Below, in pieces: positions 21,623 to 51,513 of a stretch of DNA of 64,000 nt. A program made the position numbers and the translations under genes. Each line of letters starts with the position of its first letter. Positions within the stretch are counted from its first letter, which is position 1. The notes beneath the pieces were generated by a model. It was given only the letters and a program-made list of their open reading frames with translations. It ran no database searches and was not told the DNA's origin. The DNA comes from Paracoccus sp. (in: a-proteobacteria) (lineage in GTDB: Bacteria > Pseudomonadota > Alphaproteobacteria > Rhodobacterales > Rhodobacteraceae): NCBI RefSeq assembly GCF_035556475.1, contig NZ_DATMFA010000022.1:72-64071 (forward strand), given 5' to 3'.

Positions 21623-21632
21623 AGCAATTGGA

Positions 21633-21660: not shown

Positions 21661-21684
21661 CTGCGATGAAGTGGTCGCACCGGC

Positions 21685-23610: not shown

Positions 23611-23640
23611 ACGCGCGCGGTCACAAGCTGTGACTGGACG

Positions 23641-23669
23641 GGCCGCCCCTTGGGGCGGCCTTTCTTCTT
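23641..23669 (+). terminator. Intrinsic terminator after tctC
   Basis: GGCCGCCCC-tt-GGGGCGGCC followed by TTTCTTCTT. Confidence 0.75.
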
Positions 23670-23769
23670 GGGTGTCGGTCTTGGACAACAATTACTGTAT
23701 TGCGGTAATAGCATTATCGAAATAGAGACAAGCATATGCTTGGCACTTCCCAGCCGGAGAGAGAACTTG

Positions 23770-25401: not shown

Positions 25402-25405
25402 TTAC

Positions 25406-26215: not shown

Positions 26216-26999
26216 TAATCCCGATCGCGCACTGCTTGCCCCCCGTAACGGATTTCGCGATGCGTTGCGCCAGGGCGAGGTCAGGATCGGCTTCTGGCAG
26301 GCGCTGACCTCGACGGAAACGGTCGAGATCAGCTCGCGCGCAGGTTTTGACTGGCTGCTCTTTGATGGCGAACATGCGCCGAATGACATGGCCATGCTGC
26401 GGGACCAGTTGCGCGCAAGCCAGGGCGGCTCGGCGCATCCCATCATTCGGGTCGTATCGGGTGAGCCCTGGATGCTGAAACAGGCGCTTGATATCGGCTT
26501 TCAAACGGTTCTGGTTCCGATGATCAACACGGCCGAGCAGGCCCGGCAGGCTGTCGCCGCCTGCCTTTATCCACCGGAAGGCTGCCGGGGGGTGGGTGCA
26601 GCGCTGGCCCGGGCCTCCGACTTTGGCCGCCGTTCAGGCTATCTTTCCAATGCCAATGACGAGATCTGTATTCTGCTGCAGGTCGAAAGCCGGCAGGCGC
26701 TGGAAAATCTGGACGAGATACTGGCGGTGCCGCGGATTGATGGCATCTTCATCGGTCCGGCGGATCTGTCGGCCGACATGGGCTATCGCGGTCAGGCGAC
26801 CCATCCCGAAATGCGCCGCATCCTGCGCGAGACCACTCGCCGGATCCGCGCGGCCGGCATCGCGCCGGGCATCCTGCTGGGCGCCCCCCAACATGTTGCG
26901 GAAGCCCGCGAGGATGGCGCACAGTTCATCGCGATCGGTTCGGATGTTGGGCTGTTCATGCGGGCGGCCGGCGAACTCGCGGCGCAATATCGGGTCTAA
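26202..26999 (+). CDS. hpaI: 4-hydroxy-2-oxoheptanedioate aldolase (class II pyruvate aldolase)
   Basis: [50 protein letters not shown]. Confidence 0.85.
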
Positions 27000-27179
27000 A
27001 AGCCGGGCATCGGGCGCGACGGAGGCGTTCGCCCAGATGCGCTTCAGATTGGCGCGGCGGTAGCCGCGCCAAGAATATCGGGCCTTGAACACCTTGGCCG
27101 GGTGCGGACACCAAGGCTTCGCCGCGCATCGCTTGAACGGCGTCAACGACCGGCCCGAGCCTTCTGCCTTTGGCGCAGT

Positions 27180-28565
27180 TCAGACGACTGGGGCCGCCTC
27201 GTCCCTGACGGCGCGGGTATCCGGGGCGGGGGATGCCTTTTCGGATTGCCGGGCGGGTGACGCCCCATGTGGGAGGCCATACCGCTCGCGGATGGTTTCG
27301 CCCGGCTTGTAGTGCCGGCGATAGACTCCACGCGACTGGAGGATCGGCACGACCTGATCGACGAAGATGGCGGTGTCCTCGGGGCTGCGGGGTGGCTGCA
27401 CCGTGTAGCCGTCCACCGTTCCATCCGCCCAGAGGTCGATCAACTGGTCCGCAACCTCAGAAGGGGTGCCAAGGACGATGCGATGATGCCCGGCCGAGCG
27501 CCGGGCCGCCTGCCGGGGGGTCAGGTCTTCGTGCCGCAGCAATTCGACCATCCCCAGCAGGAATCCGAGCGCGCCGCCCTGCTCGGGGTCGGGCATCACG
27601 TCATCGGCGCTGAGGACGCGATCGAAGTCGACCTTGGCGGGATCCAGCCCGAACTGGCGCAGGAAGGCCGCGACCAGCTCATCTTCGTTGCGGACGCCGC
27701 TCAGGCGCTCATGCAGGCGCAAAGCGGCCTCGCGGGTCTCGGCGACGAAGGGCACGACGCCGGGCACCAGCAGGATACCCGCCGGATCGCGCCCGTATTC
27801 CGCAGCCTTGTCGAGCAGGCGCTTGCGGAAGGCGAGGCCGGCCTGCCGGGACAGGATATTGGCATAGATGATCTCTCCATGCCGCGCCGCGAAGTCGATC
27901 CCGCTGTCCGAGCCGCCGGCCTGCGCGATGACCGGATGGGTCTGTGGGCTGACCGGGACATTCAGCGGCCCCTTGGCGACGAAGTGATTTCCCGCGAAAT
28001 TCACCGGCTCAGCCTGCCAGCCGGACCAGAAGTTATCGGACGCGCCGGCATCCTTTCCCGGCTTCCAGCTTTGCCAGAGCTGTTTCACCAGATCGAGGAA
28101 TTCCTGCGCGCGCTCATAGCGCTGCTTGCGGGGCGGCAGAGGATCACTGCCGAAATTCGCGGCGACGTCGGGGTTGAAGGAGCTGACCATATTCACGATC
28201 AGCCGCCCCCCGCTCAGCACATCAACGCTCTGGCTGCTGCGGGCAAGGTTATAGGGCGTGTTGTAGGTCGTGGACATGGTCGCGACCAGCCCGATATCGG
28301 GAACCTGCGCCGCCAGATGCGTCAGCAGGATCAGCGGCTCGATCGTGTGAAAGGGGCGGGTGCCAGGGCCTGTGCGCAAGGCCGGATGATCCGAAAGAAA
28401 CAGCGCGTCGAAGCGCCCGCGATGCGCCAGCCGCGCGATCCCGAGGTAAAACTCCGGGTCGTTGACGTCGCGCATCCGGGCCGAGCCATGCGGCCATGCG
28501 CTTTCCAGATAGCCGGTGGTGTTCAGGCCGATATTCAGATGCAACTCGCGCGGGCGGTTCGACAT
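27180..28565 (-). CDS. NtaA/DmoA/DszA-family FMNH2-dependent monooxygenase
   Basis: FDALFLSD, EPLILL, IGLVATMSTTYNTPYNLAR, GPLNVP.SPQ.HPVIAQAGGS. Confidence 0.87.
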   Translation of the reverse strand: MSNRPRELHLNIGLNTTGYLESAWPHGSARMRDVNDPEFYLGIARLAHRGRFDALFLSDHPALRTGPGTRPFHTIEPLILLTHLAAQVPDIGLVATMSTTYNTPYNLARSSQSVDVLSGGRLIVNMVSSFNPDVAANFGSDPLPPRKQRYERAQEFLDLVKQLWQSWKPGKDAGASDNFWSGWQAEPVNFAGNHFVAKGPLNVPVSPQTHPVIAQAGGSDSGIDFAARHGEIIYANILSRQAGLAFRKRLLDKAAEYGRDPAGILLVPGVVPFVAETREAALRLHERLSGVRNEDELVAAFLRQFGLDPAKVDFDRVLSADDVMPDPEQGGALGFLLGMVELLRHEDLTPRQAARRSAGHHRIVLGTPSEVADQLIDLWADGTVDGYTVQPPRSPEDTAIFVDQVVPILQSRGVYRRHYKPGETIRERYGLPHGASPARQSEKASPAPDTRAVRDEAAPVV

Positions 28566-28589: not shown

Positions 28590-29015
28590 TCAGGCCGGGC
28601 GGAGCATGTTCAGCGCCAGACGGAGGTTCTGCGCCTCGGCCAGCGAGGGATTGCGGCGCATGACCAGACTGCTCCACGCCCGTGCATGTCTTCGGACCGC
28701 CTCGGGCGCGTCGGTCAGGATGACGGTGGGATAGGGCAGCGGCATCAGGGGCAGGCGGCTGCTGTCACCGGGACAGATCAGCACCGCGGCGTTGACGCAA
28801 AGCTCCAGATGCCGCGTGGTCAGGTTCAGCAGCGTCGGAACCCAATGGTTCGTGGCGATGATCGTGGCCCAGGGCAGGGCCTCAAGCAGACGACGCAAAG
28901 GCTCCTTGCGGGGGCGCGTGGGGTCGATGCCATGATCCAGCGGCGCCACGACCCTGTCGCCGGAAAGAAGCACCTGCGCTGCGTCTGCCGCATCAAGGCT
29001 GTGGAAATCAGGCAT
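28590..29015 (-). CDS. Short degenerate RBBP9/YdeN-like alpha/beta protein lacking the catalytic serine
   Basis: AAVLICPGD...LPYPTVIL...ARAWSS resembles the YdeN family, but AHSLG is replaced by ATNHW. Confidence 0.5.
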   Translation of the reverse strand: MPDFHSLDAADAAQVLLSGDRVVAPLDHGIDPTRPRKEPLRRLLEALPWATIIATNHWVPTLLNLTTRHLELCVNAAVLICPGDSSRLPLMPLPYPTVILTDAPEAVRRHARAWSSLVMRRNPSLAEAQNLRLALNMLRPA

Positions 29016-29238: not shown

Positions 29239-30477
29239 ATGCAAAACCCCGTCCGCGCAAACCTGCATGTCGAGGCGAAGGCGCCCCGGCTGGACCAGAT
29301 CCTCGCCTCGCTGCCAGCGCTGGTGGATCGCATCAGGGCCGGTGCGGCGCAAAGGGACCGCGAGCGTATCCTGCCCTTCGAGGCGTTCGACTGGCTCCGG
29401 CAGGCGGGGATAGGAACGCTTCTGGTGCCGAGGGAGCGCGGCGGTCCGGGCGGCAAGCTTGCCGATTATATCGAGGTGATCCGTCAGCTTGGCGAGGGCG
29501 ACAGCAACGTGGCCCATGCGCTGCGCAGCCATTTCAACTTTGCGCAGGCCATCGTGCTGCGCTCGGTCGACCAGCCCGACGATCTGGCCTTTCAGCGATT
29601 GCTGTCCGGCGCGATCTTTGGCGGGGCGCATACCGAGAACCTGACCCGCCATCCCGGCGATATCGGCACCACCCTGACCCGGCAGGGCGATCACTACCGC
29701 CTGAATGGCCGCAAGCATTACGCGACCGGCACGGCATTTGCCGATTTCGCCTCGATCAGCGCGACGGATGAGCAGGGCGAGCTGGTCTTTGCCATGATCC
29801 CGACCGACCGCGAGGGGGTCGAGATTCTGGATGACTGGGACGGCATGGGCCAGCGGCTGACCGCCTCGGGCGGGATCGTCCTGCGTGACGTGCGGGTTGA
29901 GGTCGAGGAGATCGGCCAGCGCGACATCAACAGCTTCATCGGTCGCCACACCTCGACCATGCGGCAGCTGCATCTTGCGGCTTCAGCGGCCGGGGCGGTG
30001 GCGGCGGCGCTGCATGACGGGCGGGACTATGTGCTGAACCACGGGCGCGCGGCGACGCATAGCCATGCGGATTTCGCCCGCGACGACTTCTTCGTGCAGA
30101 AGGTGTTGGGCGATATTGCCGCGCTTTCCTATGGCGTCGATGCCGCGATCCGTGAGGCCGCGCGCGAGCAGGAGGCGGTGGCCGACGCGATCCTGTCCCG
30201 CGCCTCGGATGAGCAGGTCGAGCGGCTGCTGGTGCAGGCCTCGATCAACGGCGCAAGGGCGCAGCTTGTCTCGGGTCAGCTGGCGCTTGAGGCGGCGGGC
30301 CGGATCTTTGAGCTGGGCGGCGGCTCGGCGACCTCGCAGCGGTTCAACCTGGACCGGCATTGGCGCAATATCCGCACGGTCCTGAACCACAACCCGCTGA
30401 ACCACAAGGCGCGGGTCATCGGGGATTATCTGCTGAATGGCACCACGACCCACCTGCTGGAAGGCAAGGTGTTCTGA
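29239..30477 (+). CDS. DszC/SfnB-like flavin-dependent monooxygenase (ACAD fold)
   Basis: LNGRKHYATG, DDWDGMGQRLTASG, NLDRHWRNIRTVLNHNP; no TEP..GSD ACAD motif. Confidence 0.82.
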   Translation: MQNPVRANLHVEAKAPRLDQILASLPALVDRIRAGAAQRDRERILPFEAFDWLRQAGIGTLLVPRERGGPGGKLADYIEVIRQLGEGDSNVAHALRSHFNFAQAIVLRSVDQPDDLAFQRLLSGAIFGGAHTENLTRHPGDIGTTLTRQGDHYRLNGRKHYATGTAFADFASISATDEQGELVFAMIPTDREGVEILDDWDGMGQRLTASGGIVLRDVRVEVEEIGQRDINSFIGRHTSTMRQLHLAASAAGAVAAALHDGRDYVLNHGRAATHSHADFARDDFFVQKVLGDIAALSYGVDAAIREAAREQEAVADAILSRASDEQVERLLVQASINGARAQLVSGQLALEAAGRIFELGGGSATSQRFNLDRHWRNIRTVLNHNPLNHKARVIGDYLLNGTTTHLLEGKVF

Positions 30478-30513: not shown

Positions 30514-31560
30514 TTAGCCGCGCGCGCGCAGGAATGCCGGTTCCTGCCCCGAGCCGCGGCTGACGCGACCCTCGATCGGGTGGCTCGGATCGTTGAAGCC
30601 ATGGGTCGAGGCATGGCCGGGCGTGACCAGCCCGTCGACCAGCGCCTCGTCCTCGGCGGTCAGCTTGGTGCCAAGCGCCTCGACATAGCCATCCCAATGC
30701 TCCTCGGTGCGCGGCCCCGCGATGGTCGAGGTGACGAGGCGGTTCTCCAGCACCCAGGCCAGCGCGAATTGCGTGGGCGTCAGGCCCCGCGCGCGGGCAT
30801 GTTCGGCGACCTGATGGGCGATCTGGACCGATTCAGGCCGCCATTCGGTTTCAAGGAGGCGCTTGTCACCGCGACCGGCACGGGTGTCCGCTGCCGGAGC
30901 CTCGCCGGGGACGTATTTCCCGGTCAGGACGCCACGTGCGAGGGGGGAATAGGTGACCGCACCCAGACCGAAGTAACTCGCGGCCGGCAGTTCCTCGCGT
31001 TCCGCCGCGCGGGTGACGATGTTGTAGAGCGGCTGGCTGGCGATGGGGCGGTCGATGCCCAGCTTGTCGGCAAGATGCGCCACCTCGGCGATGCGCCAGG
31101 CACGGAAGTTCGAGACGCCGAAATAGCGCAGCTTACCCTGCTGGATCAGGTCGCCGATGGCGCGCAGCGGCTCCTCCAGCGGGGCGTCGAAAATGGCGCG
31201 GTGGAAATACAGCAGGTCGATATAGTCGGTGTTCAGGCGCTTCAGCTGGCCCTCGACGTTCTGGATGATCCATTTGCGCGACTGCCCGCCAAGGTTCGGC
31301 CCAACGGTCTTGGAGTTGGTGAACTTGGTCGCCACGACCCAATGGTCGCGATGCTTGGCAATGCCCTTGCCCACGGTCGTTTCAGAGGCGCCATCGTGAT
31401 AGACGTCAGCGGTGTCGATGAAGTTGATGCCCTGTTCGCGGGCCTTGTCGATGATGCGGAAGGCCACATCGTCCGGGGTCGGGCCGCCGAACATCATCGT
31501 GCCGAGCGTGATGGGGGAAACTTTCAGGGCGCTGCGTCCCAGATAGCGATATTCGACCAT
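30514..31560 (-). CDS. Aldo/keto reductase
   Basis: YRYLGRSALKVSPITLGTMMFG, IDTADVY, VATKF, YFHR, YSPLARGVLTGKY; start trimmed to MVEY. Confidence 0.9.
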   Translation of the reverse strand: MVEYRYLGRSALKVSPITLGTMMFGGPTPDDVAFRIIDKAREQGINFIDTADVYHDGASETTVGKGIAKHRDHWVVATKFTNSKTVGPNLGGQSRKWIIQNVEGQLKRLNTDYIDLLYFHRAIFDAPLEEPLRAIGDLIQQGKLRYFGVSNFRAWRIAEVAHLADKLGIDRPIASQPLYNIVTRAAEREELPAASYFGLGAVTYSPLARGVLTGKYVPGEAPAADTRAGRGDKRLLETEWRPESVQIAHQVAEHARARGLTPTQFALAWVLENRLVTSTIAGPRTEEHWDGYVEALGTKLTAEDEALVDGLVTPGHASTHGFNDPSHPIEGRVSRGSGQEPAFLRARG

Positions 31561-31839: not shown

Positions 31840-33447
31840 ATGGAATACAGTGAAAATATCTCTCGCCGTGGCATATTGCTCGGCTCTGCCGCGCTGGCTG
31901 CCGGAATGGTTTTCCCCGTGGGTAAAATCCTTGCACAGCAGGGCAAATCCGGCGGCACTGCGGTCATCGCGATCAGCTCGGAGCCGCCGGTGATCTCGGC
32001 CCTTGGCCATACCGCCTATTATACGGTCCTCGTCTCGGCCAAGACGAACGAAGGGCTGCTGACCTATGATTTCGACCTGACGCCCAAGCCGCAGCTGGCG
32101 ACGGAATGGAAGATCAGCGATGACGGCCTGCGCTATGACTTCACCCTGCGGCAGGGGGTCAAATGGCATGACGGCCAGCCCTTCACCGCCAAGGATGTGG
32201 CCTTCTCGATCAATACGATCCGCGAGGTTCACCCGCGCGGCCGCAATACCTTTGCCAATCTCGACCGGATCGAGGTGCAGGACGACCATCACGTCAGCCT
32301 GATCCTGCGCGCCCCCGCGCCCTATCTGATCCGCGCCCTTGCCGCATCGGAAACGCCCATCGTCGCTGCCCATGTCTATGCCGAGGGCAAGCCGCTGGAA
32401 AATCCCGCGCAGAACGCGCCCATCGGCACCGGACCCTACCTTTTCCGCGAATGGGTGCGCGGCAGCCATATCGTCTATGATCGCAACCCGGATTACTGGG
32501 ACGCGCCGAAGCCCGCCATCGACCAACTGGTCATCCGCTTCTTGCCCGACGCCGCCGCACGCACCGCCGCGATCGAATCCGGCGAGGTGCATGTCGCGCC
32601 GGGCGAGCCCATCCCTCTGGCCGATCTGGCGCGGATCGAGCAGAACCCGGAGCTGGGGCTGGAATGGAACGGCTATCAATATGCGAACGGCGTCCGCCGG
32701 GTCGAGTTCAACCTCGACCGCCCGATCTTTCAGGACCGCCGGGTGCGCAAGGCATTCGCCCATGTGATCGACCCGCAGGTTCTGCTGAACCTCACGAATT
32801 ACGGCTATGGCGCGGTGCTGAACGGCCCGATCCACCCGGCGCTGAAGGATTATCACTTCGCCGACCTGCCCCTGCACGAGATCAGCCCCGAGAAGGCCGA
32901 GGCGCTGCTGGATGAGGCGGGCCATCCGCGCGGCGCGGACGGCACGCGCTTCAGCGTCGCCCTCGACTACGTTCCAGGCAACGAGGGCACGCGACGCGGC
33001 GCAGAATATATCCGGCAGGCGCTGCAACAGGTCGGGGTTGATGCGCAGATCCGCGCGCAGGATTTCGCGACCTATACCAAGCGCGTCTATACCGACCGCG
33101 ACTGGGATTTCCTGTATAACGGCATGTCGAACCTGTTCGACCCGCAAGTGGGTGTGCAGCGGCTTTATTGGTCGAAGAACTTCAAGCCCGGCATCCCGTT
33201 CAGCAATGGCGCCCATTACCAGAACGCCGAGGTCGATCGGCTGCTGGAATCCTCGGCCGTGCAGAACGACCATGAGGCCCGGCGTCAGGAATGGCGGCGC
33301 GTGCAGGAGATCCTGCATGAGGACGTGCCGTCGATCTATACCGTGACCAGCCCCGAACACACGGTTTTCAGCCGCAGGCTGGCCGGGCACACGCCCGACG
33401 GCACCGGCCTTTTCGGCAATGCCGCCGATCTGCATTTCGTCGCATGA
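31840..33447 (+). CDS. Family-5 ABC substrate-binding protein (Tat signal), paralog 1
   Basis: SRRGIL, LRQGVKWHDGQPFTAKDVAFS, IGTGPY, YWSKNFKPGIPFSNGAHY. Confidence 0.9.
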   Translation: MEYSENISRRGILLGSAALAAGMVFPVGKILAQQGKSGGTAVIAISSEPPVISALGHTAYYTVLVSAKTNEGLLTYDFDLTPKPQLATEWKISDDGLRYDFTLRQGVKWHDGQPFTAKDVAFSINTIREVHPRGRNTFANLDRIEVQDDHHVSLILRAPAPYLIRALAASETPIVAAHVYAEGKPLENPAQNAPIGTGPYLFREWVRGSHIVYDRNPDYWDAPKPAIDQLVIRFLPDAAARTAAIESGEVHVAPGEPIPLADLARIEQNPELGLEWNGYQYANGVRRVEFNLDRPIFQDRRVRKAFAHVIDPQVLLNLTNYGYGAVLNGPIHPALKDYHFADLPLHEISPEKAEALLDEAGHPRGADGTRFSVALDYVPGNEGTRRGAEYIRQALQQVGVDAQIRAQDFATYTKRVYTDRDWDFLYNGMSNLFDPQVGVQRLYWSKNFKPGIPFSNGAHYQNAEVDRLLESSAVQNDHEARRQEWRRVQEILHEDVPSIYTVTSPEHTVFSRRLAGHTPDGTGLFGNAADLHFVA

Positions 33448-33454: not shown

Positions 33455-34474
33455 ATGGATACGCTTTGGTATACACGCTGCCCGGTTCCGACTCCGGTAG
33501 GGCTGGCTGTGCAGCTTGGCCTGCTGGATCGCGCCTTTGCGGCCAAGGGGGTCGAGCTTGCCTCGATCATCGACAGCAAGGACCGCAATATCCGGCAAAG
33601 CCATTTCAACCACACCCTGAAATGGTCGTTCCGCCTTGGCGGTAACGTGCCCCCGATCCGCGCCCGGTCCGAGGGGCGGAATACCCGGCTGATCGGCGTC
33701 ACCTGGACCGACGAGTATCAAGCGATCATCGCGCTGCCGGAAAGCGGCATCCGCAGCGCCTCGGATCTGGAAGGGCGCAGGCTGGGCGTCCCGAAACAAC
33801 CCGAGGGTGATGTTTTCGTCGTCGATTTCTGGCGGGCCAGTGCGCTCAAGGCCTTCGATTCCGCCCTGACCATCGCCGGTCTGGCGCGCAGCGAGGTCGA
33901 GCTGGTCGACATCGCCTTCTCGGAGAGCGTGCTGGATAGCCACGAGGCCGACCGCTTCGGCCTTGCCCGCCGCATCCCCTATGGCCCGGAAATCGCGGCG
34001 CTGTTCCGGGGCGAGGTCGATGCGATCTTCGTCAAGGGTGCCTCGGGGATTGCCGCCGCGAACCTTATCGCGGCGCAGGAGGCGGTGTCCTTCGGCTTCC
34101 ATGACGATCCCGCGATCCGCATAAATTCGGGGACGCCGCGCCTCCTGACCGTCGATGCGGCGCTGCTGGACGAACGGCCCGATCTGGCGGCGACCCTGAT
34201 CGGGACCATCCGGCAGGCGGGCGAATGGGCCGCCGCCCATCCCGACGACACCGCCCGCTTTGCCGCCCGTGAAACAGGCGCCAGCGAAGAGCAGATCCAT
34301 GTGGCCCACGGCCCGCGCTTTGCCCAGAGCTTCGGTCTGTCGCTGGAGCCCGAGGCCCTGGCCGCGGTGGAAAGCTACAAGGATTTCCTGCTGGCCGAGG
34401 GTTTCCTTGCCGCCGATTTCAGCATTGCGGATTGGGTGGACCGCCGCGCATGGGATCAGGCGCTGGCCGCCTGA
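33455..34474 (+). CDS. DszB-like arylsulfinate desulfinase homologue 1 (cytoplasmic)
   Basis: DTLWYTRCPVP, SHF, FRLGGNVPP align with DszB Cys27/His60/Arg70/Gly73; no signal peptide. Confidence 0.72.
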   Translation: MDTLWYTRCPVPTPVGLAVQLGLLDRAFAAKGVELASIIDSKDRNIRQSHFNHTLKWSFRLGGNVPPIRARSEGRNTRLIGVTWTDEYQAIIALPESGIRSASDLEGRRLGVPKQPEGDVFVVDFWRASALKAFDSALTIAGLARSEVELVDIAFSESVLDSHEADRFGLARRIPYGPEIAALFRGEVDAIFVKGASGIAAANLIAAQEAVSFGFHDDPAIRINSGTPRLLTVDAALLDERPDLAATLIGTIRQAGEWAAAHPDDTARFAARETGASEEQIHVAHGPRFAQSFGLSLEPEALAAVESYKDFLLAEGFLAADFSIADWVDRRAWDQALAA

Positions 34475-34917
34475 TCCTCGCCCGTAAGCGGACCGCTCAG
34501 CGGGACCGAGCTGCAAAGATCCTGCAGGGTGCGATGCTCCAGAATGGCCAGCATCGCATCGCGCACTTCCAGCATCAGCAAACGGATCTCGCAGGCGCTT
34601 TGCGTCGGGCAATCGTGGCATTTGCGATAGGCGGTCTTGCTGACGCAGGAAATCGGCGCGATCGGCCCGTCGATCACGCGCAGGATCTGGGCCACGCTGA
34701 TCGTGTCGGCCGGCCGGGCAAGGGAATACCCGCCCGAGCGGCCCTTGCGCGTCTGGATCAGACCAGCCTGACGCAAATCGGCAAGGATGGTGTCCAGAAA
34801 CTTCTTGGGAATGCCGTTCGCGTTGGCGATGGCAGTCGACTGCCGCACTTCGCCCGGATCAAGGCGCGCCAGCTCGATAAGCGCCTTGATGCCGTATTTC
34901 CCCTTCATGGTCAGCAT
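34456..34917 (-). CDS. Rrf2 family transcriptional regulator with a four-Cys C-terminal motif
   Basis: MLTMKGKYGIKAL, IPKKFLDTIL, GRSGGYSLARP, CVS..YRKCHDC....C. Confidence 0.9.
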   Translation of the reverse strand: MLTMKGKYGIKALIELARLDPGEVRQSTAIANANGIPKKFLDTILADLRQAGLIQTRKGRSGGYSLARPADTISVAQILRVIDGPIAPISCVSKTAYRKCHDCPTQSACEIRLLMLEVRDAMLAILEHRTLQDLCSSVPLSGPLTGEDQAASA

Positions 34918-34946
34918 GGATGATCCGCGTTTCGCAATGTTCCCCA

Positions 34947-34969
34947 TGCTCTACCATGATGGTGGATAT
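34947..34969. promoter_or_regulatory. Candidate Rrf2 operator 3 (autoregulatory position)
   Basis: TGCTCTAC-N7-GTGGATAT, 30 nt upstream of the rrf2 start. Confidence 0.65.
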
Positions 34970-34986
34970 TACGAAAGCCGGCTGGG

Positions 34987-36189
34987 CTATTGATGCGGCA
35001 AAGGCGGGGGCAGCTTGCCGCTGAGCGCATGCTCTCCGATCTGGGCATATTTCCACCAACTTGCGTCATGCAGGGTATGGACGCGCAGGTTGCGCCAGAG
35101 CCGGTCGAGGCCGAGCGTCCGGTTCGCCGCGCCGGCGCCGCCGAACTCGAAAAGGTCGCTGGCCATGCGCAGCGCAACCTCGCCGCCAAAGGTCTTGGCC
35201 TTGGCGATCTCCAGCGTCGCGCGGCCGATCGCCTCGGCATCGTCGCTGTCGATGACGGCATCCAGCCCACGCGCCCCGTCCTCTTGCAGCAGTTCCGCCG
35301 CCTTCTGGCGGGTTTCCCATTCACCGAAGCGGTAGAGAATATGGGTGTCGTCCAGATAGCTCGCATGGCCGTGGCCGATCGCCTCCGGGGCCAGCCTGCC
35401 GCGCGCCGCAATCAATTCGCGCGCGGCATCAAGCGCGGCGCGGCCCATGCCGATGTCGATGGCGGAATGAACCAGCATGAAGGTCGCCCAAAGCGGCAGG
35501 AAGGGCCCGGCGCCCTCGTGCTTGTGCAGGACGCGGTCGGCAGGCACGCGCACATTGTCGAAGGTGATCGACATGCTGGCCGTGCCCTTTTGCCCGAACA
35601 GATCCCAGTCATGGCCAAAGCTCAGCCCGGCCGCGTCGCGGGGCACGATGGCGAAGGTGAAGCGCTCCTCCTCGTCCGTGGCCGAGACGCGGATCCAGTC
35701 GCCGTTCCAGGCGCCGGTCGTATAGAATTTCTGGCCGCTGAGGACGTAATCGTCGCCGTCCCGAAGGATACGGACATTCGGCAGGCCCACGCCGCGCTGG
35801 CCGCGCTCGACCTGCGCGTTGCCAAAGACCGCGCCCTTCAGCATCAGGTCAAAGACCCATTGCCGCTGTTCGGGGCTGCCAAAGGTGCGCAAGGCGTCGA
35901 TGGTGCCGAAATGGGTCTGGGTTGTCTGGGCCAGCGCGCCATCGGCCTCGGCGACGATCTGGATCATGCGTGACAGCTCGGCATAGCCCAAGCCCGGCCC
36001 GCCATTCGCCTTCGGGATGGTCAGGGTCAGAAGGCCGGTCCGGCCCCAGGCGATGAATTCGCGCCTGAGGTCGTGGTTTTCGGCATCGCGACGCACGGCG
36101 TCCCTTGCCACCTCGGCGGCAAAGGCGCGCGCCGTTTCCAGATAGGTGTCGCGCGTCGGCAGCGGGATGATCGGGGCAAGATGGGTCAT
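34987..36189 (-). CDS. DszC/SfnB-like flavin-dependent monooxygenase
   Basis: LSGQKFYTTG, DWDLFGQKGTAS, GLDRLWRNLRVHTLHD. Confidence 0.82.
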   Translation of the reverse strand: MTHLAPIIPLPTRDTYLETARAFAAEVARDAVRRDAENHDLRREFIAWGRTGLLTLTIPKANGGPGLGYAELSRMIQIVAEADGALAQTTQTHFGTIDALRTFGSPEQRQWVFDLMLKGAVFGNAQVERGQRGVGLPNVRILRDGDDYVLSGQKFYTTGAWNGDWIRVSATDEEERFTFAIVPRDAAGLSFGHDWDLFGQKGTASMSITFDNVRVPADRVLHKHEGAGPFLPLWATFMLVHSAIDIGMGRAALDAARELIAARGRLAPEAIGHGHASYLDDTHILYRFGEWETRQKAAELLQEDGARGLDAVIDSDDAEAIGRATLEIAKAKTFGGEVALRMASDLFEFGGAGAANRTLGLDRLWRNLRVHTLHDASWWKYAQIGEHALSGKLPPPLPHQ

Positions 36190-37184
36190 GCGGCCCGATC
36201 CGCATTCGGCAGGTCGTTCCAGTCGAGCGCCCAGCCCGCGACATCGACATGTTCGGGGATGAGGCCCTGCGCCAGCAGGAAATCCGCCTGATCCTGCAAC
36301 GCGGCCAGACGGTCGACCGTCAGCGAGGGCAGCAGGTTTTCCGGCACGAAGGACTGGAATGCGGCCTCGGCATCCTCGGGCGACTGGCCGGTTTCGCCGG
36401 CAAGGATCGCCCAGAGCCGCGCCCGGTCCTGCGCGATGCGCGCCACCGCGCCTTGAGCGTCGGCAAGGATGCGGCGCACCACCTCGGGCCGGGCGGCGAT
36501 GAAATCGGCATGGAAGGTCAGCGTGCGGGGCGTCCCGTTATTGACCCGCAAGAGCGGATCGGAGAGCTGGTCGATCCGCAGCACCGCGCGATAGCGTCCG
36601 CTGCGCAGCGCCGCGACTCCGGCGGCGCTTTTCAGCCAGACCGCATCGACGTGGCCTTGATCCAGCAGCGCCAGTTCCGCGTCGAAGCTTTCGCCGCCGG
36701 TCTGGCCGGGCAGCACCCCGCGCAGGTCGCGCGCATCGACCAGCGTGACCGCGTCGAGCCCCAGCCCGGCATAGCGCAACGCCTGCTGGATGCCGCGGAC
36801 CGAGGTGATGCGCGACACGTCCAGCCGATGGCCCGAGGAAAGCGGCAGCGCGAAGCGGTGCCCGCCGAGCGACGCGACATCGGTGAATTCGCTGTCCTCG
36901 CGCACGATCACCGCCTGGAATTCGTCCAGCCAGGTGATGCCCAGAAGCCGCGTGTCCGCCCCGTGCGAGCGCGCCCAGATCGCAGGGATATTGCCGCCCT
37001 CGCGCATCAGATTCGCGATGCCATGTTCGAAATGATGACGCCGGATCTCGGGGTCGGGGATGTCCTGAAGCGCCCGCGCGTCAAGGCCGTGGTCGCGCAG
37101 GCCTGCCTGAAGGATCCCCAGCCCGGCGCTGACCCCGGTTGAGGTCGGAGCGGGGCAGCGCGTGTAATGGAAGATGTCGGTCAT
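36186..37184 (-). CDS. DszB-like arylsulfinate desulfinase homologue 2
   Basis: YTRCPAP, HHFEH, MREGGNIPA; ATGA-coupled to the upstream SBP; no signal peptide. Confidence 0.72.
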   Translation of the reverse strand: MTDIFHYTRCPAPTSTGVSAGLGILQAGLRDHGLDARALQDIPDPEIRRHHFEHGIANLMREGGNIPAIWARSHGADTRLLGITWLDEFQAVIVREDSEFTDVASLGGHRFALPLSSGHRLDVSRITSVRGIQQALRYAGLGLDAVTLVDARDLRGVLPGQTGGESFDAELALLDQGHVDAVWLKSAAGVAALRSGRYRAVLRIDQLSDPLLRVNNGTPRTLTFHADFIAARPEVVRRILADAQGAVARIAQDRARLWAILAGETGQSPEDAEAAFQSFVPENLLPSLTVDRLAALQDQADFLLAQGLIPEHVDVAGWALDWNDLPNADRAA

Positions 37185-38767
37185 TGGGTCACCTCGTCCT
37201 TGATCCAGGCATCGGCAAGACTGCCATTGATGCCCTCGGCATCGGTCACGGCATCCTGCACGCGGCCGTTGATGATGGAGAAATTGAAATCCGACAGCAG
37301 GTTGATATCGGGAAGATCCGCGATCACCTGCGTCTGGATCTGGTCCCACAGCGCCTTGCGTTTTGCCGGATCGGTCTCGACCGCGGTGGCCTCCAGCAGC
37401 GCGTCGGTCTGCGGATTGGCGTAATGCGCCCCGTTGGTGAAGGGCACGCCGGGGCGGAAGTTCTTCGACCAATAGAGCCGCTGGACACCGACGGTCGGGT
37501 CGAAGGTATTGGTCATGGAATTGACGGTGAAGGCAAAGTCGCGGTCGGTATAGACGCGCCGGGTATAGGTCGGGAAATCCTGCACCCGAACCTCGATGGC
37601 GATGCCAACCTGCGCCAGTGCCTGTTTGACGTAATCGGCGGTGCGGCGGTCGCCCTCGGTCGCGGGACGGAAATCCAGCGGCAGCGAAAAGCGGATGCCG
37701 TTCGCGCCGCGCGGATAGCCGGCCTCGTCCAGCAGGGCTTCGGCCTTCGCCGGATCGAAGGCATGGTCCGGCAGGCCCTCGGCCCGGAAGGGCGACAGGT
37801 CCGGGCTGATCGGTCCCGAAACGGGCTGGCCATAGCCATACCAGATCACGTTGCGGATGGTGTCGCGGTCAATCGCATGGGCGACAGCCTGACGCACGCG
37901 GAGATCCTTGAAATGCGGCTCGTCCAGATTGAATTCGATCCGCTTCACCCCGGCCTCGAAGATGGTGCCGCGCTCCTCGATGCGGATATGGCGCAGGGCG
38001 CGAACCCGCTCCAGATCGGCCATCGGGATCAGGTTGCCGGTGGTCAGGTCGGCCTCGCCCGTCTCGACCGCGACGGCGCGGGCGGCAGCGTCGGGCAGGA
38101 TGCGAAAGACCACGCCGTCCAGATAGGGCTTGCCCTTGTCCCAGTAATCCGGGTTGCGTTCCAGCCGCAGGAAGCTGCCGCCCTGCAACTCGGCAAAGCG
38201 GAACGGGCCGGTGCCCACGGGCTTCTGGTTCCACGGATTGGTCAGCGGATCGCTGCCCTCGTAAAGATGCCTGGGCAGGATCGGGCTTTCGACGGCGGCG
38301 AGGGCGCGGATCAGATAGGGCGCGGGCCGGGACAGGCGCAGGATCAGGCTGTGATCGTCGGGCGTCTCGATCGCGGTGACATTGGCGAAGGTCGTGCGCC
38401 CGCGCGGGTGATATTCCTTCAGCAGCTGGATCGAGAAAGCCGCATCCGCCGCGGTGAAGGGCTGGCCGTCGTGCCATTTGACCCCCTGCCGGATGTCGAA
38501 GCGGTATTCGAGGCCATCGTCCGACACATGCCAGCCCGTCGCCAGCGCCGGCAGCGGGTTCAGGTCGAAGTCATAGCGCAGCAGGCCCTCGACGATCTTC
38601 GGCCCGGTCGAACGTGAGCCGTCCGGCGACAACGGCACCAGCATCGGCGGTTGCAGGGCAAGCACCTGCGTCAGCGTGCCACCACGCTGCGGAGACTGGG
38701 CAAGGGCGGGCAGGGCCGTAAGGCCAGCCAACACAAGCGGCATGAGCCAGCGGGAGAGTTTCGGCAT
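37181..38767 (-). CDS. Family-5 ABC substrate-binding protein (Sec-type signal), paralog 2
   Basis: IRQGVKWHDGQPFTA, VGTGPF, YWSKNFRPGVPFTNGAHY; start trimmed to MPKLSRW. Confidence 0.9.
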   Translation of the reverse strand: MPKLSRWLMPLVLAGLTALPALAQSPQRGGTLTQVLALQPPMLVPLSPDGSRSTGPKIVEGLLRYDFDLNPLPALATGWHVSDDGLEYRFDIRQGVKWHDGQPFTAADAAFSIQLLKEYHPRGRTTFANVTAIETPDDHSLILRLSRPAPYLIRALAAVESPILPRHLYEGSDPLTNPWNQKPVGTGPFRFAELQGGSFLRLERNPDYWDKGKPYLDGVVFRILPDAAARAVAVETGEADLTTGNLIPMADLERVRALRHIRIEERGTIFEAGVKRIEFNLDEPHFKDLRVRQAVAHAIDRDTIRNVIWYGYGQPVSGPISPDLSPFRAEGLPDHAFDPAKAEALLDEAGYPRGANGIRFSLPLDFRPATEGDRRTADYVKQALAQVGIAIEVRVQDFPTYTRRVYTDRDFAFTVNSMTNTFDPTVGVQRLYWSKNFRPGVPFTNGAHYANPQTDALLEATAVETDPAKRKALWDQIQTQVIADLPDINLLSDFNFSIINGRVQDAVTDAEGINGSLADAWIKDEVTQ

Positions 38768-38786: not shown

Positions 38787-39734
38787 TCAGGCCGTGAGGG
38801 GCAGCGGGTGATGGCAGGCGAAGGCATGGGCATCGCCATTCTCGGGGATCAGCGGCTCGACCTTGCGGCACAGGTCGGTGGCATGGGGGCAGCGCGGGTG
38901 GAAACGGCAGCCTCCGGGCAGGTTCTGGACACCGGGCAGATCGCCCGAGAGGGGCGCGACCTCGCGCGGGTTGCCTGCATCGGGCAGAGCGTCGATCAGC
39001 GCGCGGGTATAGGGATGGCGCGGATTGTCCCAGACCTCGCGCGTCGGACCGCTTTCGACGATCCGGCCCAGATACATGACCAGCACGCGGTCGGTGAAAT
39101 AGCGCACCACCGAAAGGTCATGGCTGATGAACAGATAGGACAGCCCGTATTCGCGTTTGAGTTCGGCCAGCAGGTTGATGATCTGGGCCTGAATCGACAG
39201 GTCCAGCGCCGAAACCGGCTCGTCACAGACGATCATCTGCGGGCGCAGGATCAGGGCCCGGGCAATGCCGATGCGCTGGCGCTGACCGCCGCTGAACTCA
39301 TGCGGGTAACGGTCCAGCGCATCCGGGGGCAGGCCGACGCGGCTCACGATCTCTTCGGCGATGCGGTTGCGCTCGGCGCGACTGGCGACGCCGTGGATCT
39401 TCAGCGGCCCGGTCAGGATGCGGCGGATGCTGTGGCGCGGGTTCAGCGATGCGAAGGGATCCTGAAAGATCATCTGCAATTTTCGCCGCACCGGCATCAA
39501 ATCGCGGCCCTGCGCGGTGGTGATCTCGTCCCCGTCCAGCCGGACGCTGCCCTCGTCCGAGGGCACGAGCCGCATCAGCGTCTTGCCCAGCGTGGACTTG
39601 CCGCAGCCGGATTCGCCGACAAGGCCCACCGTCTCGCCCTGTGCGACGGAAAAGCTGACGCCTTCCAGCGCGCGGAAGCGGCCATGCGGCGTGTCATAGG
39701 CGGTGGCGAGGTTCTCAAGCGAAAGCAGCGACAT
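38787..39734 (-). CDS. ABC ATP-binding protein (OppF/DppF)
   Basis: GESGCGKS, FSGGQRQRIGIARAL, CDEPVSALD, C-terminal GCRFHPRC. Confidence 0.92.
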   Translation of the reverse strand: MSLLSLENLATAYDTPHGRFRALEGVSFSVAQGETVGLVGESGCGKSTLGKTLMRLVPSDEGSVRLDGDEITTAQGRDLMPVRRKLQMIFQDPFASLNPRHSIRRILTGPLKIHGVASRAERNRIAEEIVSRVGLPPDALDRYPHEFSGGQRQRIGIARALILRPQMIVCDEPVSALDLSIQAQIINLLAELKREYGLSYLFISHDLSVVRYFTDRVLVMYLGRIVESGPTREVWDNPRHPYTRALIDALPDAGNPREVAPLSGDLPGVQNLPGGCRFHPRCPHATDLCRKVEPLIPENGDAHAFACHHPLPLTA

Positions 39735-40722
39735 GTCTTGCCTCCTCGGTCAGGATGCCGGGAAAATGGCAGGCGACCAGCCGGTCGCCCCGATACGCGA
39801 CGGGAGGGGGCACGACCGCGCCGCAAACCTCGCGCGCGGCGGGGCAACGCGGACGAAACGGGCAGCCCGCCTCTGCGCGGGCCGAGGCGATGGAGCCGGG
39901 GATCTCGGCCAGCGGCGCATCGCGATAGGTCAGCCCCTCGGCATTGCGGGGCGAGGCCGCAAGCAACCCGTGGCTGTAGGGGTGCAGCGGATCGGCGAAA
40001 AGCTGGGCGGGCGTCGCCTCCTCGACATGTAGGCCGGCATACATGACCACGACGCGGTCGGCCCATTGCGAGACGACGCCAAGGTCATGGGTGATCAGCA
40101 CCACGGCCACGTCCAGTTCGCGCCGCAGATTGTCGAGAAGTTGCAGGATCTGCGCCTGAATGGTCACGTCCAGCGCCGTCGTCGCCTCATCCGCGATCAG
40201 GATGCGGGGGCGGCAGGCCACGGCCATCGCGATCATTACGCGCTGGCGCATGCCCCCGGACAATTGGTGCGGATAGTCGTCGATGCGCCGCGCCGCGTCG
40301 GGGATGCGGACGAGGTTCATCAGTTCCCGCACCCGTGCGCGGCGGGCGGCGCGGTCCAGATCCTCATGCGCGATCAGCGTCTCTTCGATCTGGCGGCCGA
40401 TCGTGTGGACCGGGTTCAGCGAGGTCATCGGTTCCTGAAACACCATCGCGATCTGCTTGCCGCGCAAAAGGCGGCGGCGGCGTTCGGGCAAGGCCAGCAT
40501 GTCGACCCGACCCCGCGGCGTGCGGATCAGGATCTGGCCCGAGGCCCTGGCGTTGCGGGGCAGCAGGCCCATCATCGACAGCGCGGTCAGCGATTTGCCC
40601 GAGCCGGATTCGCCCACGATGGCCAGCGTCTCGCGCGGGTTGACGTGAAAGCTCACGCGCTCGACCGGCCGGGCGGGGCCGAAGGCGACGGACAGGTTTT
40701 CGACGGCAAGAACGGCGCTCAC
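39715..40722 (-). CDS. ABC ATP-binding protein (OppD/DppD)
   Basis: [39 protein letters not shown]; GTG start overlaps the permease stop (GTGA). Confidence 0.9.
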
Positions 40723-41708
40723 AGGCGATCCTCCGAAAAGCGGGGGTTCAGGGCGTCGTTCAGGCCGTCGCCGATCAGGTTCAGCGCGAGCACCGTTACG
40801 ACAATGGCAAGGCCGGGCAGGGCGGTCAGATACCAGGCGGTGCGGATCATCTCGCGCCCGCCGCCGATCATCGACCCCCAGGAGACCACATTGGGATCGC
40901 CAAGGCCCATGAAGGACAGCGCCGATTCCATCAGGATCGCCCCCGCGACCATGACCGAACTGGTCACGATGATCGGCGGCAGCGCGTTCGGCAGGATCTC
41001 GCGAAAGATGATATGGCCGTGGCCAAAGCCCAGACTGCGCGCGGCGGTGACGAAGTCGTTCTGGCGCAGGCTGCGGAACTCGGCCCGGGTCAGGCGGGCG
41101 ACGGTGGGCCAGGTGACGATCGCGATTGAAAGCGTGATCGTCGTCGCATTTGGCCCGAGGATCGCGACGAGGACTACGACAAGGACAAAGCTGGGCAAGG
41201 TCTGGAAGATCTCGATCAGGCGCGACAGCACCCGGTCGGTCACGCCGCCGAAATAGCCCGCGAGCGCACCGACGACGATGCCCACGCCCAGCCCCAGCGC
41301 GGTCGCGGCGACGCCGACGTAAAGCGAGATGCGCGCGCCATGGACCAGCCCGGCCAGCACGTCGCGGCCCATGGAATCCGTCCCCAGCGGAAAGGCGGGA
41401 TCCTGTCCGGGCCACAGAAAGGGCCGCCCCACCATCGCCAGCGGATCGCGCGGGAAAAGCAGGGGCGCGGTCAGCGCGCAAATGGCCATCGCCAGCAGCA
41501 CCACGATGCCGAAGATGGCATTCGGATTGCGCAGGAACAGCTTCAGCTCGGCATAGCCCTGTCGCGGCGGCAGGTGTGCCGTGGTCGCGCTGCGGGCGTC
41601 CGGGGCGTGGATATGGCGCCATTCGGGCTGCGGGGCGGGCGACTGGGGCGCGTTGCGCGCGGCGGGGGTCGCCAGCGCCTTGTGAAGCGTGCTGTCGGCG
41701 GGCATCAA
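40719..41708 (-). CDS. ABC permease (OppC/DppC)
   Basis: FPLGTDSMGRD, FVTAARSLG, ILPNALPP. Confidence 0.9.
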   Translation of the reverse strand: MMPADSTLHKALATPAARNAPQSPAPQPEWRHIHAPDARSATTAHLPPRQGYAELKLFLRNPNAIFGIVVLLAMAICALTAPLLFPRDPLAMVGRPFLWPGQDPAFPLGTDSMGRDVLAGLVHGARISLYVGVAATALGLGVGIVVGALAGYFGGVTDRVLSRLIEIFQTLPSFVLVVVLVAILGPNATTITLSIAIVTWPTVARLTRAEFRSLRQNDFVTAARSLGFGHGHIIFREILPNALPPIIVTSSVMVAGAILMESALSFMGLGDPNVVSWGSMIGGGREMIRTAWYLTALPGLAIVVTVLALNLIGDGLNDALNPRFSEDRL

Positions 41709-42691
41709 TTCGCTCCTATCCGGGGGTCGAGGCGGGACTGAAGCAGGTCCACCAGCCCGTTGACCACGATCACGACCAGCGAGGACAGCAGCAGGATTCC
41801 CAGGAGGACGTTGAAATCCCGCGCCATCACCGCCTCGAAGGCCAGCCGTCCAAGGCCGGGCCAGCTGAACACCGTTTCGACTACGACGGCGCCGCCCAGC
41901 ATGTTTCCGAAATGCATCCCCGCCATGGTCGTGACCGGGATCAGCGCGTTGCGCAGGATATGCGAAAGGGTGATCCGCAGCGGCGACAGGCCCTTGGCGC
42001 GCGCGGTGCGGACATAGTCCTGATTGCGGATCTCGAGCATCGCGGCGCGGGTCAGCCGGGCGTAGATCGCGACATAGAACAGCGACAGCGACATCGCGGG
42101 CAGGATCATGTAGCGCGCGTTGTCCAGCACGGCCGCCCAGCCGGTCAGGCTGCTGCCGATGGTGCCCGACCCGCCCGAGGGCAGCCAGCCCAACTTGACC
42201 GAGAACAGCAGGATCAGCATCAGCCCGATCCAGAAGCCGGGGATGGAATAGAAGAGCAGCGACAGGACCGACAGCAGGCGGTCGGGGATGCGGCCGGCGA
42301 AACTGGACATCACCGCGCCAAGCGCGACGCCCAGCACCACGGCCAGCCCCAGCGCCGTCGCCATCAGGATCAGCGTGCCGGGCAGTCGCTGCATGATCAG
42401 GTCAAGCACGGGCATGGCGTAGCGGGGGGAGTGCCCCAGATCGAGCTGCGCGAGATGCAGAAGATAGGTCTTGAGCTGTTCGAGAACGGAGAGGTCCAGC
42501 CCCATACTGCGGCGCAGCGCGGCCATTGTCTCCTCGGTCGCCGATCCCGCCTCGGCCGCGATCACGTCCGCTGCATCACCGGGCGCCAGTTGCAGCAGCA
42601 GGAAGTTCAGCACGACGATGCCCAGCACGGTGGGAATGGCGTGAAGGAAGATGCGCCAGATCTGGCGCGGGACGGATTTTCTTTGCGCCAT
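41705..42691 (-). CDS. ABC permease (OppB/DppB)
   Basis: LAPGDAAD, DYVRTARAKGLS, HILRNAL, ETVFSWPGLG. Confidence 0.92.
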   Translation of the reverse strand: MAQRKSVPRQIWRIFLHAIPTVLGIVVLNFLLLQLAPGDAADVIAAEAGSATEETMAALRRSMGLDLSVLEQLKTYLLHLAQLDLGHSPRYAMPVLDLIMQRLPGTLILMATALGLAVVLGVALGAVMSSFAGRIPDRLLSVLSLLFYSIPGFWIGLMLILLFSVKLGWLPSGGSGTIGSSLTGWAAVLDNARYMILPAMSLSLFYVAIYARLTRAAMLEIRNQDYVRTARAKGLSPLRITLSHILRNALIPVTTMAGMHFGNMLGGAVVVETVFSWPGLGRLAFEAVMARDFNVLLGILLLSSLVVIVVNGLVDLLQSRLDPRIGAN

Positions 42692-44759: not shown

Positions 44760-44768
44760 CACCGGACG

Positions 44769-44793
44769 CTGGAATCCCTCGCAGGGGTTCCGG
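44769..44793 (+). terminator. Stem-loop after SBP gene (terminator or mRNA stabiliser)
   Basis: CTGGAATCCCT-cgc-AGGGGTTCCGG. Confidence 0.5.
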
Positions 44794-44878
44794 TGTTCTC
44801 CGCGAGCCGGGCGAAGGGACTTTTCATCACTGTTTTTCAGGGAAATACGCAAACCCGCATCCCTAGACGAGGCAATAA

Positions 44879-44901
44879 TCGTCCATATGATCAGTGTATA
44901 T
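44879..44901. promoter_or_regulatory. Candidate Rrf2 operator 5
   Basis: TCGTCCAT-N7-GTGTATAT, 17 nt upstream of the 44918 start. Confidence 0.65.
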
Positions 44902-44917
44902 TTAAGGGGATAGCAGC

Positions 44918-46276: not shown

Positions 46277-46285
46277 GGACATGAG

Positions 46286-47647: not shown

Positions 47648-47671
47648 ACCTTTCAACGACATGAGCATCCT

Positions 47672-48937: not shown

Positions 48938-48944
48938 GGCCGCG

Positions 48945-51512: not shown

Positions 51513-51513
51513 G

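Follow-up and report, generated by a model that had tools for sequence, protein, structure and literature searches.

The sulfinate desulfinase DszB is the slow step that limits biodesulfurisation, and to our knowledge very few of its natural variants have been studied. Here, we describe two DszB-like genes, designated W1 and W2, in a stretch of Paracoccus sp. DNA of 64,000 nucleotides (NCBI RefSeq assembly GCF_035556475.1, contig NZ_DATMFA010000022.1, positions 72 to 64,071 of the forward strand); the whole stretch is called the window, and coordinates refer to it unless another genome is named. The two products are predicted to be cofactor-free cytoplasmic C-S hydrolases of the DszB superfamily that would carry out the last, sulfite-releasing step of a "4S-like" pathway of organosulfur scavenging, a reading to which we assign a probability of about 0.62.

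The catalytic residues of DszB have been described in detail. Cys27 is essential, as the C27S variant is inactive, and calculations make it the proton donor to the aromatic carbon that bears the sulfinate; the thiolate is stabilised by His60, which the Ser25 hydroxyl orients through a hydrogen bond, Arg70 is part of a conserved R-x-G-G motif, and the sulfinate is in contact with Gly73 (PMC6100217). The catalytic cluster model comprised five residues, namely Ser25, Cys27, His60, Arg70, and Gly73, and the computed proton-transfer mechanism needs an sp2 (aryl or vinyl) carbon (PMC6100217). Turnover of the enzyme is slow and product-inhibited (PMC12168087).

The second described system is the bdsABC operon of Gordonia terrae C-6 (KC831580), in which BdsA, named a "desulfinase," is 23% identical to DszB (PMC3868597). 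In Escherichia coli extracts, the operon converted benzothiophene to o-hydroxystyrene, while BdsA was not assayed alone (PMC3868597). The neighbours of BdsA are an FMNH2-dependent monooxygenase, a luciferase-like monooxygenase (LLM), and a sulfonate-type ATP-binding cassette (ABC) transporter, and BdsA is induced when an organosulfur source replaces sulfate (PMC3868597). A benzothiophene-specific desulfuriser, Sinorhizobium sp. KT55, is also known, the genes of which were not described (PMC3868597).

Relationship of W1 and W2 to DszB

The two genes are located as follows:

33455-34474, plus strand: W1, DszB-like protein type 1, predicted cytoplasmic desulfinase, 339 amino acids, beginning MDTLWYTRCPVPT

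36186-37184, minus strand: W2, DszB-like protein type 2, predicted cytoplasmic desulfinase, 332 amino acids, beginning MTDIFHYTRCPAPT

An earlier reading of the DNA, made from the letters and their open reading frames (ORFs) and referred to as the sequence-only reading, had proposed both ORFs as desulfinases. Their coordinates were confirmed, and their coding frames were backed by gene picking based on the GC content of third codon positions (GC3; the sequence is ~65% GC). W1 and W2 are paralogs that share 33% identity along their whole length (E = 2e-51).

In HMMER searches, DszB (2DE2) was the best match among all PDB sequences both for W1 (E = 3e-19; the alignment pairs residues 2-328 with DszB 20-352) and for W2 (E = 8e-9). 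Since these E-values were obtained, for W1 over a full-length alignment, the motifs shared with DszB reflect homology and not a chance resemblance. The identity to DszB is 26-27%, which is below that of the characterised DszB/TdsB/BdsB orthologs (about 50% or more); at this level, W1 and W2 are classed as subfamilies paralogous to DszB and not as DszB orthologs. A profile built from the W1/W2 family gave DszB 125.7 bits, and DszB is best regarded as a divergent member of the same superfamily.

The AlphaFold2 (AF2) models had a pLDDT of 93.8 and a pTM of 0.92 for W1, and 92.4 and 0.91, respectively, for W2. Foldseek comparison with the PDB assigned both predicted structures to the type II periplasmic-binding-protein (SsuA-like) fold. 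The DszB structures 2DE3/2DE2 came first, with TM values of 0.76-0.80 for W1 and 0.75-0.78 for W2 (SsuA at 0.70 for the latter); they were followed by SsuA/TauA at 0.61-0.71 and then by Thi5 and others.

Domain models were less specific. Pfam NMT1 (PF09084) matched only residues 69-128 of W1 (34.9 bits; cut-off 20.5) and stayed under its cut-off in W2 (17.0 bits), and this match probably reflects the shared fold rather than a Thi5 function. The NCBIfam model SsuA_fam (TIGR01728) gave 61.0 bits for W1 and 58.0 bits for W2, both under the cut-off of 163.5. Because Pfam gives only a partial NMT1 match and NCBIfam only a sub-threshold SsuA_fam match, homologs receive a generic substrate-binding name. 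Thus, most of them are called "ABC transporter substrate-binding protein," as the sequence-only reading had expected, while a minority already carry the names "desulfurase" or "2'-hydroxybiphenyl-2-sulfinate desulfinase" from NCBI, UniRef, or JGI. The resemblance to DszB is therefore not new.

Active site and family-specific positions

The motifs to which the sequence-only reading had drawn attention are present (YTRCPVP, SHF, and FRLGG in W1; YTRCPAP, HHF, and MREGG in W2), and the HMMER alignment to 2DE2 puts them, as it had proposed, on Cys27, His60, and Arg70-x-Gly-Gly of DszB. The counterparts of DszB Ser25, Cys27, His60, Arg70, Gly72, and Gly73 are Thr7, Cys9, His50, Arg60, Gly62, and Gly63 in W1 and Thr8, Cys10, His51, Arg61, Gly63, and Gly64 in W2, so that the R-x-G-G motif reads RLGG and REGG, respectively. 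Among 243 aligned sequences (240 homologs, with DszB included in the set), the catalytic Cys was present in 242, and the His, the Arg, and both Gly were invariant. Thr occupied the position of Ser25 in 240 of the 243, with the hydroxyl retained. In a set of 149 family representatives, obtained by an exhaustive profile search and clustered at 50% identity, 123 had the Cys, 122 the His, and 141 the Arg; Ser replaced Cys in 10 of them (~7%).

In addition to this shared set, a number of positions were invariant in the W1 and W2 subfamilies and differed from DszB (DszB residue in brackets): Arg8 (Asn26), Thr13 (Asn31), His53 (Tyr63), Asn64 (Glu74), Trp84/Asp86/Glu87 (Pro96/Leu98/Gly99), Lys194 (Pro227), and Glu273 (Asn297). 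Arg222, Asn224, and Arg229 were likewise invariant, within an R-x-N-x-G-T-P-R motif at which DszB has D-E-R-N-A-Y-A-S. Segments of this kind line the inter-domain cleft in the type II binding-protein fold. Many of the positions concerned are neutral in DszB and invariably charged in the family. Since the family-specific polar residues fall in these segments, we infer that the pocket of W1 and W2 may be more polar and charged than the biphenyl site of DszB. Together with the Dpp-type importer described below, the conserved polar differences suggest that the natural substrate may be a polar compound rather than hydroxybiphenyl sulfinate.

Translation starts and predicted localization

The ATG of W1 lies 7 nt past the stop codon of the upstream gene for a family-5 solute-binding protein (SBP), and that of W2 overlaps the stop codon of a second such gene (ATGA, CAATGACC). 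A GAGGTGA Shine-Dalgarno sequence stands in front of both, 5-6 nt from the ATG. The stop codon of W2 in turn overlaps the ATG of an SfnB-like gene (ATGA, GCATGACC), and W2 is predicted to be translationally coupled both to the upstream SBP gene and to the downstream SfnB-like gene. The 3' ends of W1 and of an Rrf2 gene on the minus strand overlap convergently by 19 nt (34456-34474).

No signal peptide was found in W1 or W2 when the N-termini, the starts, and the upstream in-frame sequence were examined, in agreement with the sequence-only reading. Extended upstream in frame, the W2 ORF runs into the neighbouring SBP gene and encodes an Arg/Gly-rich, non-hydrophobic sequence. In the AF2 models, the first beta-strand begins at residue 3-4, and the family's conserved core begins at residue 3; the conserved Cys is residue 9 in W1 and 10 in W2 and is preceded by a median of 13 residues in the 240 homologs. 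There is thus no room for a signal peptide, and W1 and W2 are, by sequence, predicted to be cytoplasmic.

Genes around W1 and W2

W1 and W2 are part of a sulfur-acquisition island that spans 27.2-50.1 kb of the window (~23 kb) and holds four LLMs, three SfnB/DszC-like flavoenzymes, three family-5 SBPs, one Dpp-type ABC importer, an aldo-keto reductase (AKR), and an Rrf2 regulator:

27180-28565, minus strand: NtaA/DmoA-family (DszA-type) LLM dependent on flavin mononucleotide (TIGR03860 356 bits, cut-off 279.7)

29239-30477, plus strand: second SfnB/DszC-like flavoenzyme (TIGR04022 282.7 bits; DszC model 170.8)

30514-31560, minus strand: aldo-keto reductase, divergent from the pair formed by SBP 1 and W1 (Pfam Aldo_ket_red, E = 1e-64)

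31840-33447, plus strand: family-5 SBP 1 with a twin-arginine-like signal (Pfam SBP_bac_5, E = 5e-87)

34456-34917, minus strand: Rrf2-family transcriptional regulator (Pfam Rrf2, E = 2e-36; TIGR00738 115 bits, above cut-off)

34987-36189, minus strand: SfnB/DszC-like flavin-dependent oxidoreductase of the acyl-CoA dehydrogenase (ACAD) fold (TIGR04022 SfnB 339.6 bits, cut-off 430.9; DszC model 150.7)

37181-38767, minus strand: family-5 SBP 2 with a Sec-type signal (Pfam SBP_bac_5, E = 8e-89)

38787-42691, minus strand: Dpp/Opp-type ABC importer (permeases 41705-42691 and 40719-41708; ATPases 39715-40722 and 38787-39734)

43167-50123, plus strand: rest of the island, with the third family-5 SBP, two NtaA/DmoA LLMs, the third SfnB-like enzyme, and an SfnG/RutA-like LLM (Pfam, NCBIfam)

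Three of the four LLMs exceeded the NtaA/DmoA (DszA-type) cut-off (356, 533, and 533 bits); the latter two values belong to the LLMs at 44918-46276 and 46286-47647, both scored with TIGR03860. All three SfnB-like enzymes, which have the ACAD fold, also matched the DszC model. W1 and W2 sit among DszA-type and DszC-type flavin monooxygenases, a setting to be expected for a desulfinase.

Between 42691 and 34456, the genes on the minus strand follow each other closely or overlap, in the order permease, permease, ATPase, ATPase, family-5 SBP, W2, SfnB-like enzyme, and Rrf2 regulator, and were read as a probable single operon with the Rrf2 gene in the last position. The Rrf2 protein scored 76.7 bits with the CymR model, under its cut-off. 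The importer was recognised by the ABC Walker and signature motifs and the hydrophobic, permease-like translations of its ORFs, and the related locus of Sinorhizobium meliloti contains the same four importer genes (BPD_transp_1; ABC_tran plus oligo_HPY). No other transporter is encoded in the island, and the importer comes with family-5 SBPs of its own; there is no SsuBC-type partner for W1 or W2. The N-terminus of SBP 1 reads as a signal peptide (SRRGILLGSAALAAG), with a weak TAT_signal match of 17.8 bits against a Pfam cut-off of 22.7; no NCBIfam peptide, nickel, or glutathione SBP model reached its cut-off for this protein. SBP 2 has a hydrophobic, signal-like N-terminus (LMPLVLAGLTALPALAQ; from the likely start, MPKLSRWLMPLVLAGLTALPALAQ). 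The third SBP carries a twin-arginine-like signal. No Rfam matches to sulfur-responsive riboswitches were obtained across the whole window, and scans of promoters and terminators gave nothing beyond the shuffled expectation; a single promoter-like site precedes the first permease gene.

Several other features were observed in and near the island. An ORF of 141 amino acids (28590-29015, minus strand) with a coding-like GC3 of 0.80 lies between the NtaA-type LLM and the divergent SfnB-like gene; it had no Pfam or NCBIfam match. The island is adjoined by genes for a family III CoA-transferase, a true ACAD, and two MaoC dehydratases (50310-53517, plus strand). The CoA-transferase/ACAD pair (50.3-52.7 kb) was considered as a 3-sulfinopropanoyl-CoA desulfinase system, which found no support, the ACAD scoring 217 bits against a cut-off of 600. 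The block at 14895-27000 has a GC content of ~0.60 (0.65 for comparison) and contains two IclR regulators, an aldehyde dehydrogenase, TctA, an alpha/beta hydrolase, an FAD aromatic hydroxylase, and an HpcH-type aldolase; this gene content suggests a distinct cluster for the catabolism of aromatic acids.

Distribution of the family and related loci

Relatives of W1 and W2 were found in at least 583 species in a genome scan, and an exhaustive profile search gave a family of ~370 clusters at 50% identity (E <= 1e-30). The nearest named ortholog of W1 belongs to Paracoccus laeviglucosivorans (88% identity). Of 79 fetched loci, 61% had an LLM within 10 kb, 54% a family-5 SBP, 53% a Dpp permease, 46% an AKR, and 44% an SfnB-like protein of the ACAD type, and the DszB-like gene itself was present two or three times in 49%. 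Directly adjacent on the same strand, 132 related gene copies had an LLM in 30%, an SfnB-like gene in 20%, and a family-5 SBP gene in only 9%. The sequence-only reading had noted that each of the two genes follows a family-5 SBP gene; this is true in the window, where both upstream genes match Pfam SBP_bac_5, but it is no rule in the family.

The ortholog on S. meliloti pSymA is 62% identical to W1 and is divergent from dpp-like genes, an AKR, a family-5 SBP, and an ACAD. Downstream of it, an SfnB-like gene is succeeded by a second DszB-like gene, and NmrA-like genes, an FAD hydroxylase, and an LLM come next. Beside this cluster, at 17565-18959 of the S. meliloti sequence, lies a sulfite-oxidase-like molybdoenzyme (Oxidored_molyb plus Mo-co_dimer), which fits a sulfite product; such an enzyme was present in only one of the 79 other loci. 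In Acetobacter, one such locus contains both a W1-type gene and a W2-type gene, the latter 60% identical to W2. Members from an actinomycete, Methylobacillus, and a cyanobacterium are located amid LLMs, ACAD-fold enzymes, a flavin reductase, TauD, and sulfonate-type (Ssu) transporters. Sulfur-scavenging neighbours recur in Alphaproteobacteria, Betaproteobacteria, Actinobacteria, and Cyanobacteria.

Two database proteins join a DszB-like domain to another region. In P0326 (935 amino acids), an N-terminal region resembling FAD-dependent aromatic hydroxylases (by eye) is fused to a DszB-like domain with Cys. In P0252 (618 amino acids), an apparent C-terminus of a sigma-54 activator with a helix-turn-helix is joined to a DszB-like domain in which Ser replaces Cys; this protein may be the product of a faulty gene call.

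Several soil-metagenome runs from 2018 contained sequence near-identical to 33455-37184, with as much as 99% of sampled words present; the share in mosquito-metagenome runs was far lower. The sequencing runs matching this region were soil and mosquito metagenome DNA, with no RNA run among them.

Proposed pathway and alternative explanations

The desulfinase function is, in our opinion, the best supported for W1 and W2. According to the proposed scheme, a polar organosulfur compound would be captured by the family-5 periplasmic SBPs and imported by the Dpp-type ABC system. The SfnB/DszC-like flavoenzymes would then oxygenate its sulfur, and the NtaA/DmoA (DszA-type) monooxygenases would cut one C-S bond to yield a sulfinate and an aldehyde, which the AKR could reduce. 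W1 or W2 would bind the sulfinate group through Arg-x-Gly-Gly and His, and the Cys thiol would protonate the sulfinate-bearing carbon, as proposed for DszB Cys27, with release of SO2/sulfite for assimilation. The Rrf2 regulator probably links expression to sulfur status. We infer the reaction, the order of the steps, the substrates, and the division of sulfinates between the paralogs; the support for this scheme consists of homology, predicted fold, residue conservation, the absence of an export signal, operon structure, and the conserved neighbourhood. The bdsABC operon provides a precedent: with a DszB homolog just as distant (23% identity) among its products, it supports the desulfurisation of benzothiophene by cell extracts. 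The desulfinase assignment of the sequence-only reading thus stood as regards membership of the DszB family (by sequence, predicted fold, and active site), cytoplasmic location, and monooxygenase context, whereas catalysis has the status of a prediction.

Since the DszB mechanism needs an sp2 carbon, general chemistry favours sulfinates of the aryl, heteroaryl, or vinyl type, or those in which a neighbouring group can stabilise a carbanion, over simple alkyl sulfinates as substrates. It is plausible that W1 and W2 take different sulfinates, as the sequence-only reading had proposed; this idea comes from their 33% identity and the repeated occurrence of two or three copies per locus. Neither protein is likely to be able to stand in directly for DszB when hydroxybiphenyl sulfinate is the substrate.

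Several points weigh against the desulfinase assignment. The identity to DszB is low, and the substitutions beside the catalytic residues (Asn26 to Arg, Tyr63 to His, and Glu74 to Asn), together with the R-x-N-x-G-T-P-R motif, mean that the chemistry or the substrate could differ. The representatives with Ser for Cys indicate that part of the family may only bind ligand. A peptide-type importer is not obviously a supplier of the precursor of an sp2-carbon sulfinate, and the island showed no gene for a flavin reductase. Moreover, no activity data for any member of the W1/W2 clade were found in the searchable literature; full-text searches for characterised members other than DszB/TdsB/BdsB, for work on rhizobia or pSymA, and for pathways of the sulfolane type gave nothing on this clade.

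Of the other explanations, the one that best survives is that W1 and W2 are enzymes on the DszB scaffold that perform another Cys/His-dependent organosulfur reaction, such as sulfonate desulfonation, cleavage of a sulfenate or thiosulfonate, or C-S lysis of a heteroaryl thiol derivative. The invariant polar residues from Arg8 to Glu273, which are absent from DszB, would suit such a reaction; so would the enzymes of related loci that are superfluous to the 4S scheme (NmrA-like reductases and an FAD_binding_3 hydroxylase) and the fusion of a hydroxylase with a DszB-like protein, and Thi5 and MqnD use this fold for unrelated chemistry. However, the sulfinate-holding His and Arg-x-Gly-Gly and the proton-donor Cys are all kept, and the flavoenzyme partners are the very ones by which sulfinates arise in the characterised 4S pathway. 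We consider this explanation unlikely, though it is the leading alternative.

A less probable explanation, to which we give a small chance, is that the two proteins are non-catalytic cytoplasmic binders, that is, carriers of a sulfonate or sulfinate to the monooxygenases or sensors for Rrf2 or other regulators. This would leave without reason the invariant Cys, His, Arg, and Gly-Gly in 240 homologs from several phyla, and both W1 and W2 carry the Cys, the exchange of which for Ser abolishes the activity of DszB (PMC6100217). The type II binding-protein fold, the 10 of 149 representatives with Ser, and the slow, product-inhibited turnover of DszB (PMC12168087) would agree with binding, as would the joining of a Ser-variant domain to an activator C-terminus in P0252, if that protein is not an artefact of gene calling.

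Finally, that W1 and W2 are ordinary periplasmic SsuA/TauA-type ABC SBPs with mis-called starts or non-classical export, as the default annotation of homologs and the weak SsuA_fam and NMT1 matches might suggest, is very improbable and was rejected, since SsuA_fam scored far under its cut-off, DszB was the better structural match, no in-frame upstream extension encodes a signal peptide, few residues precede the Cys in homologs, and the adjacent transporter is of the Dpp type and already has its own family-5 SBPs.

Beyond the desulfinase assignment itself, a broader proposal can be put forward only tentatively. W1 and W2 would represent a large clade of cofactor-free desulfinases (at least ~370 clusters at 50% identity and at least 583 species) that completes a natural 4S-like pathway for polar biogenic organosulfur entering through peptide/opine-type importers in soil and rhizosphere bacteria; the petroleum enzyme DszB would be a specialised offshoot, and the paralogs would handle distinct sulfinates of one pathway.

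Significance

The present analysis adds to the known resemblance the conservation of the full catalytic set, a polar signature that differs from DszB, two co-occurring subfamilies, and the link to Dpp-type importers and AKRs. A clade that keeps the catalytic residues and alters the surrounding ones offers material for studying the natural role of the DszB scaffold and what determines the specificity of that scaffold. The clade is abundant in soil bacteria that can be cultivated, including Paracoccus, Rhizobium, Sinorhizobium, Agrobacterium, Burkholderia, Pseudomonas, and many actinomycetes. In hundreds of genomes, transporter labels hide a probable sulfite-releasing enzyme from models of organosulfur assimilation. 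The sequence-only reading had stressed the value of natural variants for biodesulfurisation, and this link proved weak: the identity to DszB is low, several invariant polar positions differ, and the genes are coupled to an importer of the Dpp type (peptide/opine/glutathione class), with nothing that points to thiophenes. Whether fuel desulfurisation would benefit in practice is uncertain, as the natural substrates probably do not derive from thiophenes.

Comparison with known systems

SsuA and TauA (TIGR01728; PDB 2X26 and 6SSY) are folded as a whole like W1 and W2 (TM 0.61-0.71), and the glycine-rich loop that binds anions is related in the two groups. Unlike W1 and W2, they are exported, non-catalytic, partnered with SsuBC, and without the N-terminal Cys motif.

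BdsA is, like W1 and W2, a distant DszB homolog encoded beside flavin monooxygenases, but it is actinobacterial and its system acts on a hydrophobic thiophenic substrate. A possible member of the clade, BdsA was not retrieved among the fetched family proteins, either by its primer-implied N-terminus or in a homolog search with an actinobacterial profile. The DszB-like cluster of S. meliloti pSymA would be an obvious candidate for the benzothiophene desulfurisation of strain KT55.

DszB has the same type II binding-protein fold as W1 and W2 and likewise lacks a signal peptide. It shares with them the Y-[ST]-x-C-P-x-P, H-F, and R-x-G-G motifs, which contain the proton-donor Cys, the His, and the sulfinate-binding Arg and Gly, and it is also encoded amid DszA-type and DszC-type flavin monooxygenases. 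The DszB/TdsB orthologs are 50-87% identical to each other (supplement of the Gordonia terrae paper, PMC3868597), in contrast to the 26-27% between W1/W2 and DszB. Whereas DszB is encoded in the compact dszABC operon, the genes of W1 and W2 are tied to a Dpp-type importer, an AKR, and an Rrf2 regulator, and, unlike in dszABC, two or three paralogs per locus are common in their family.

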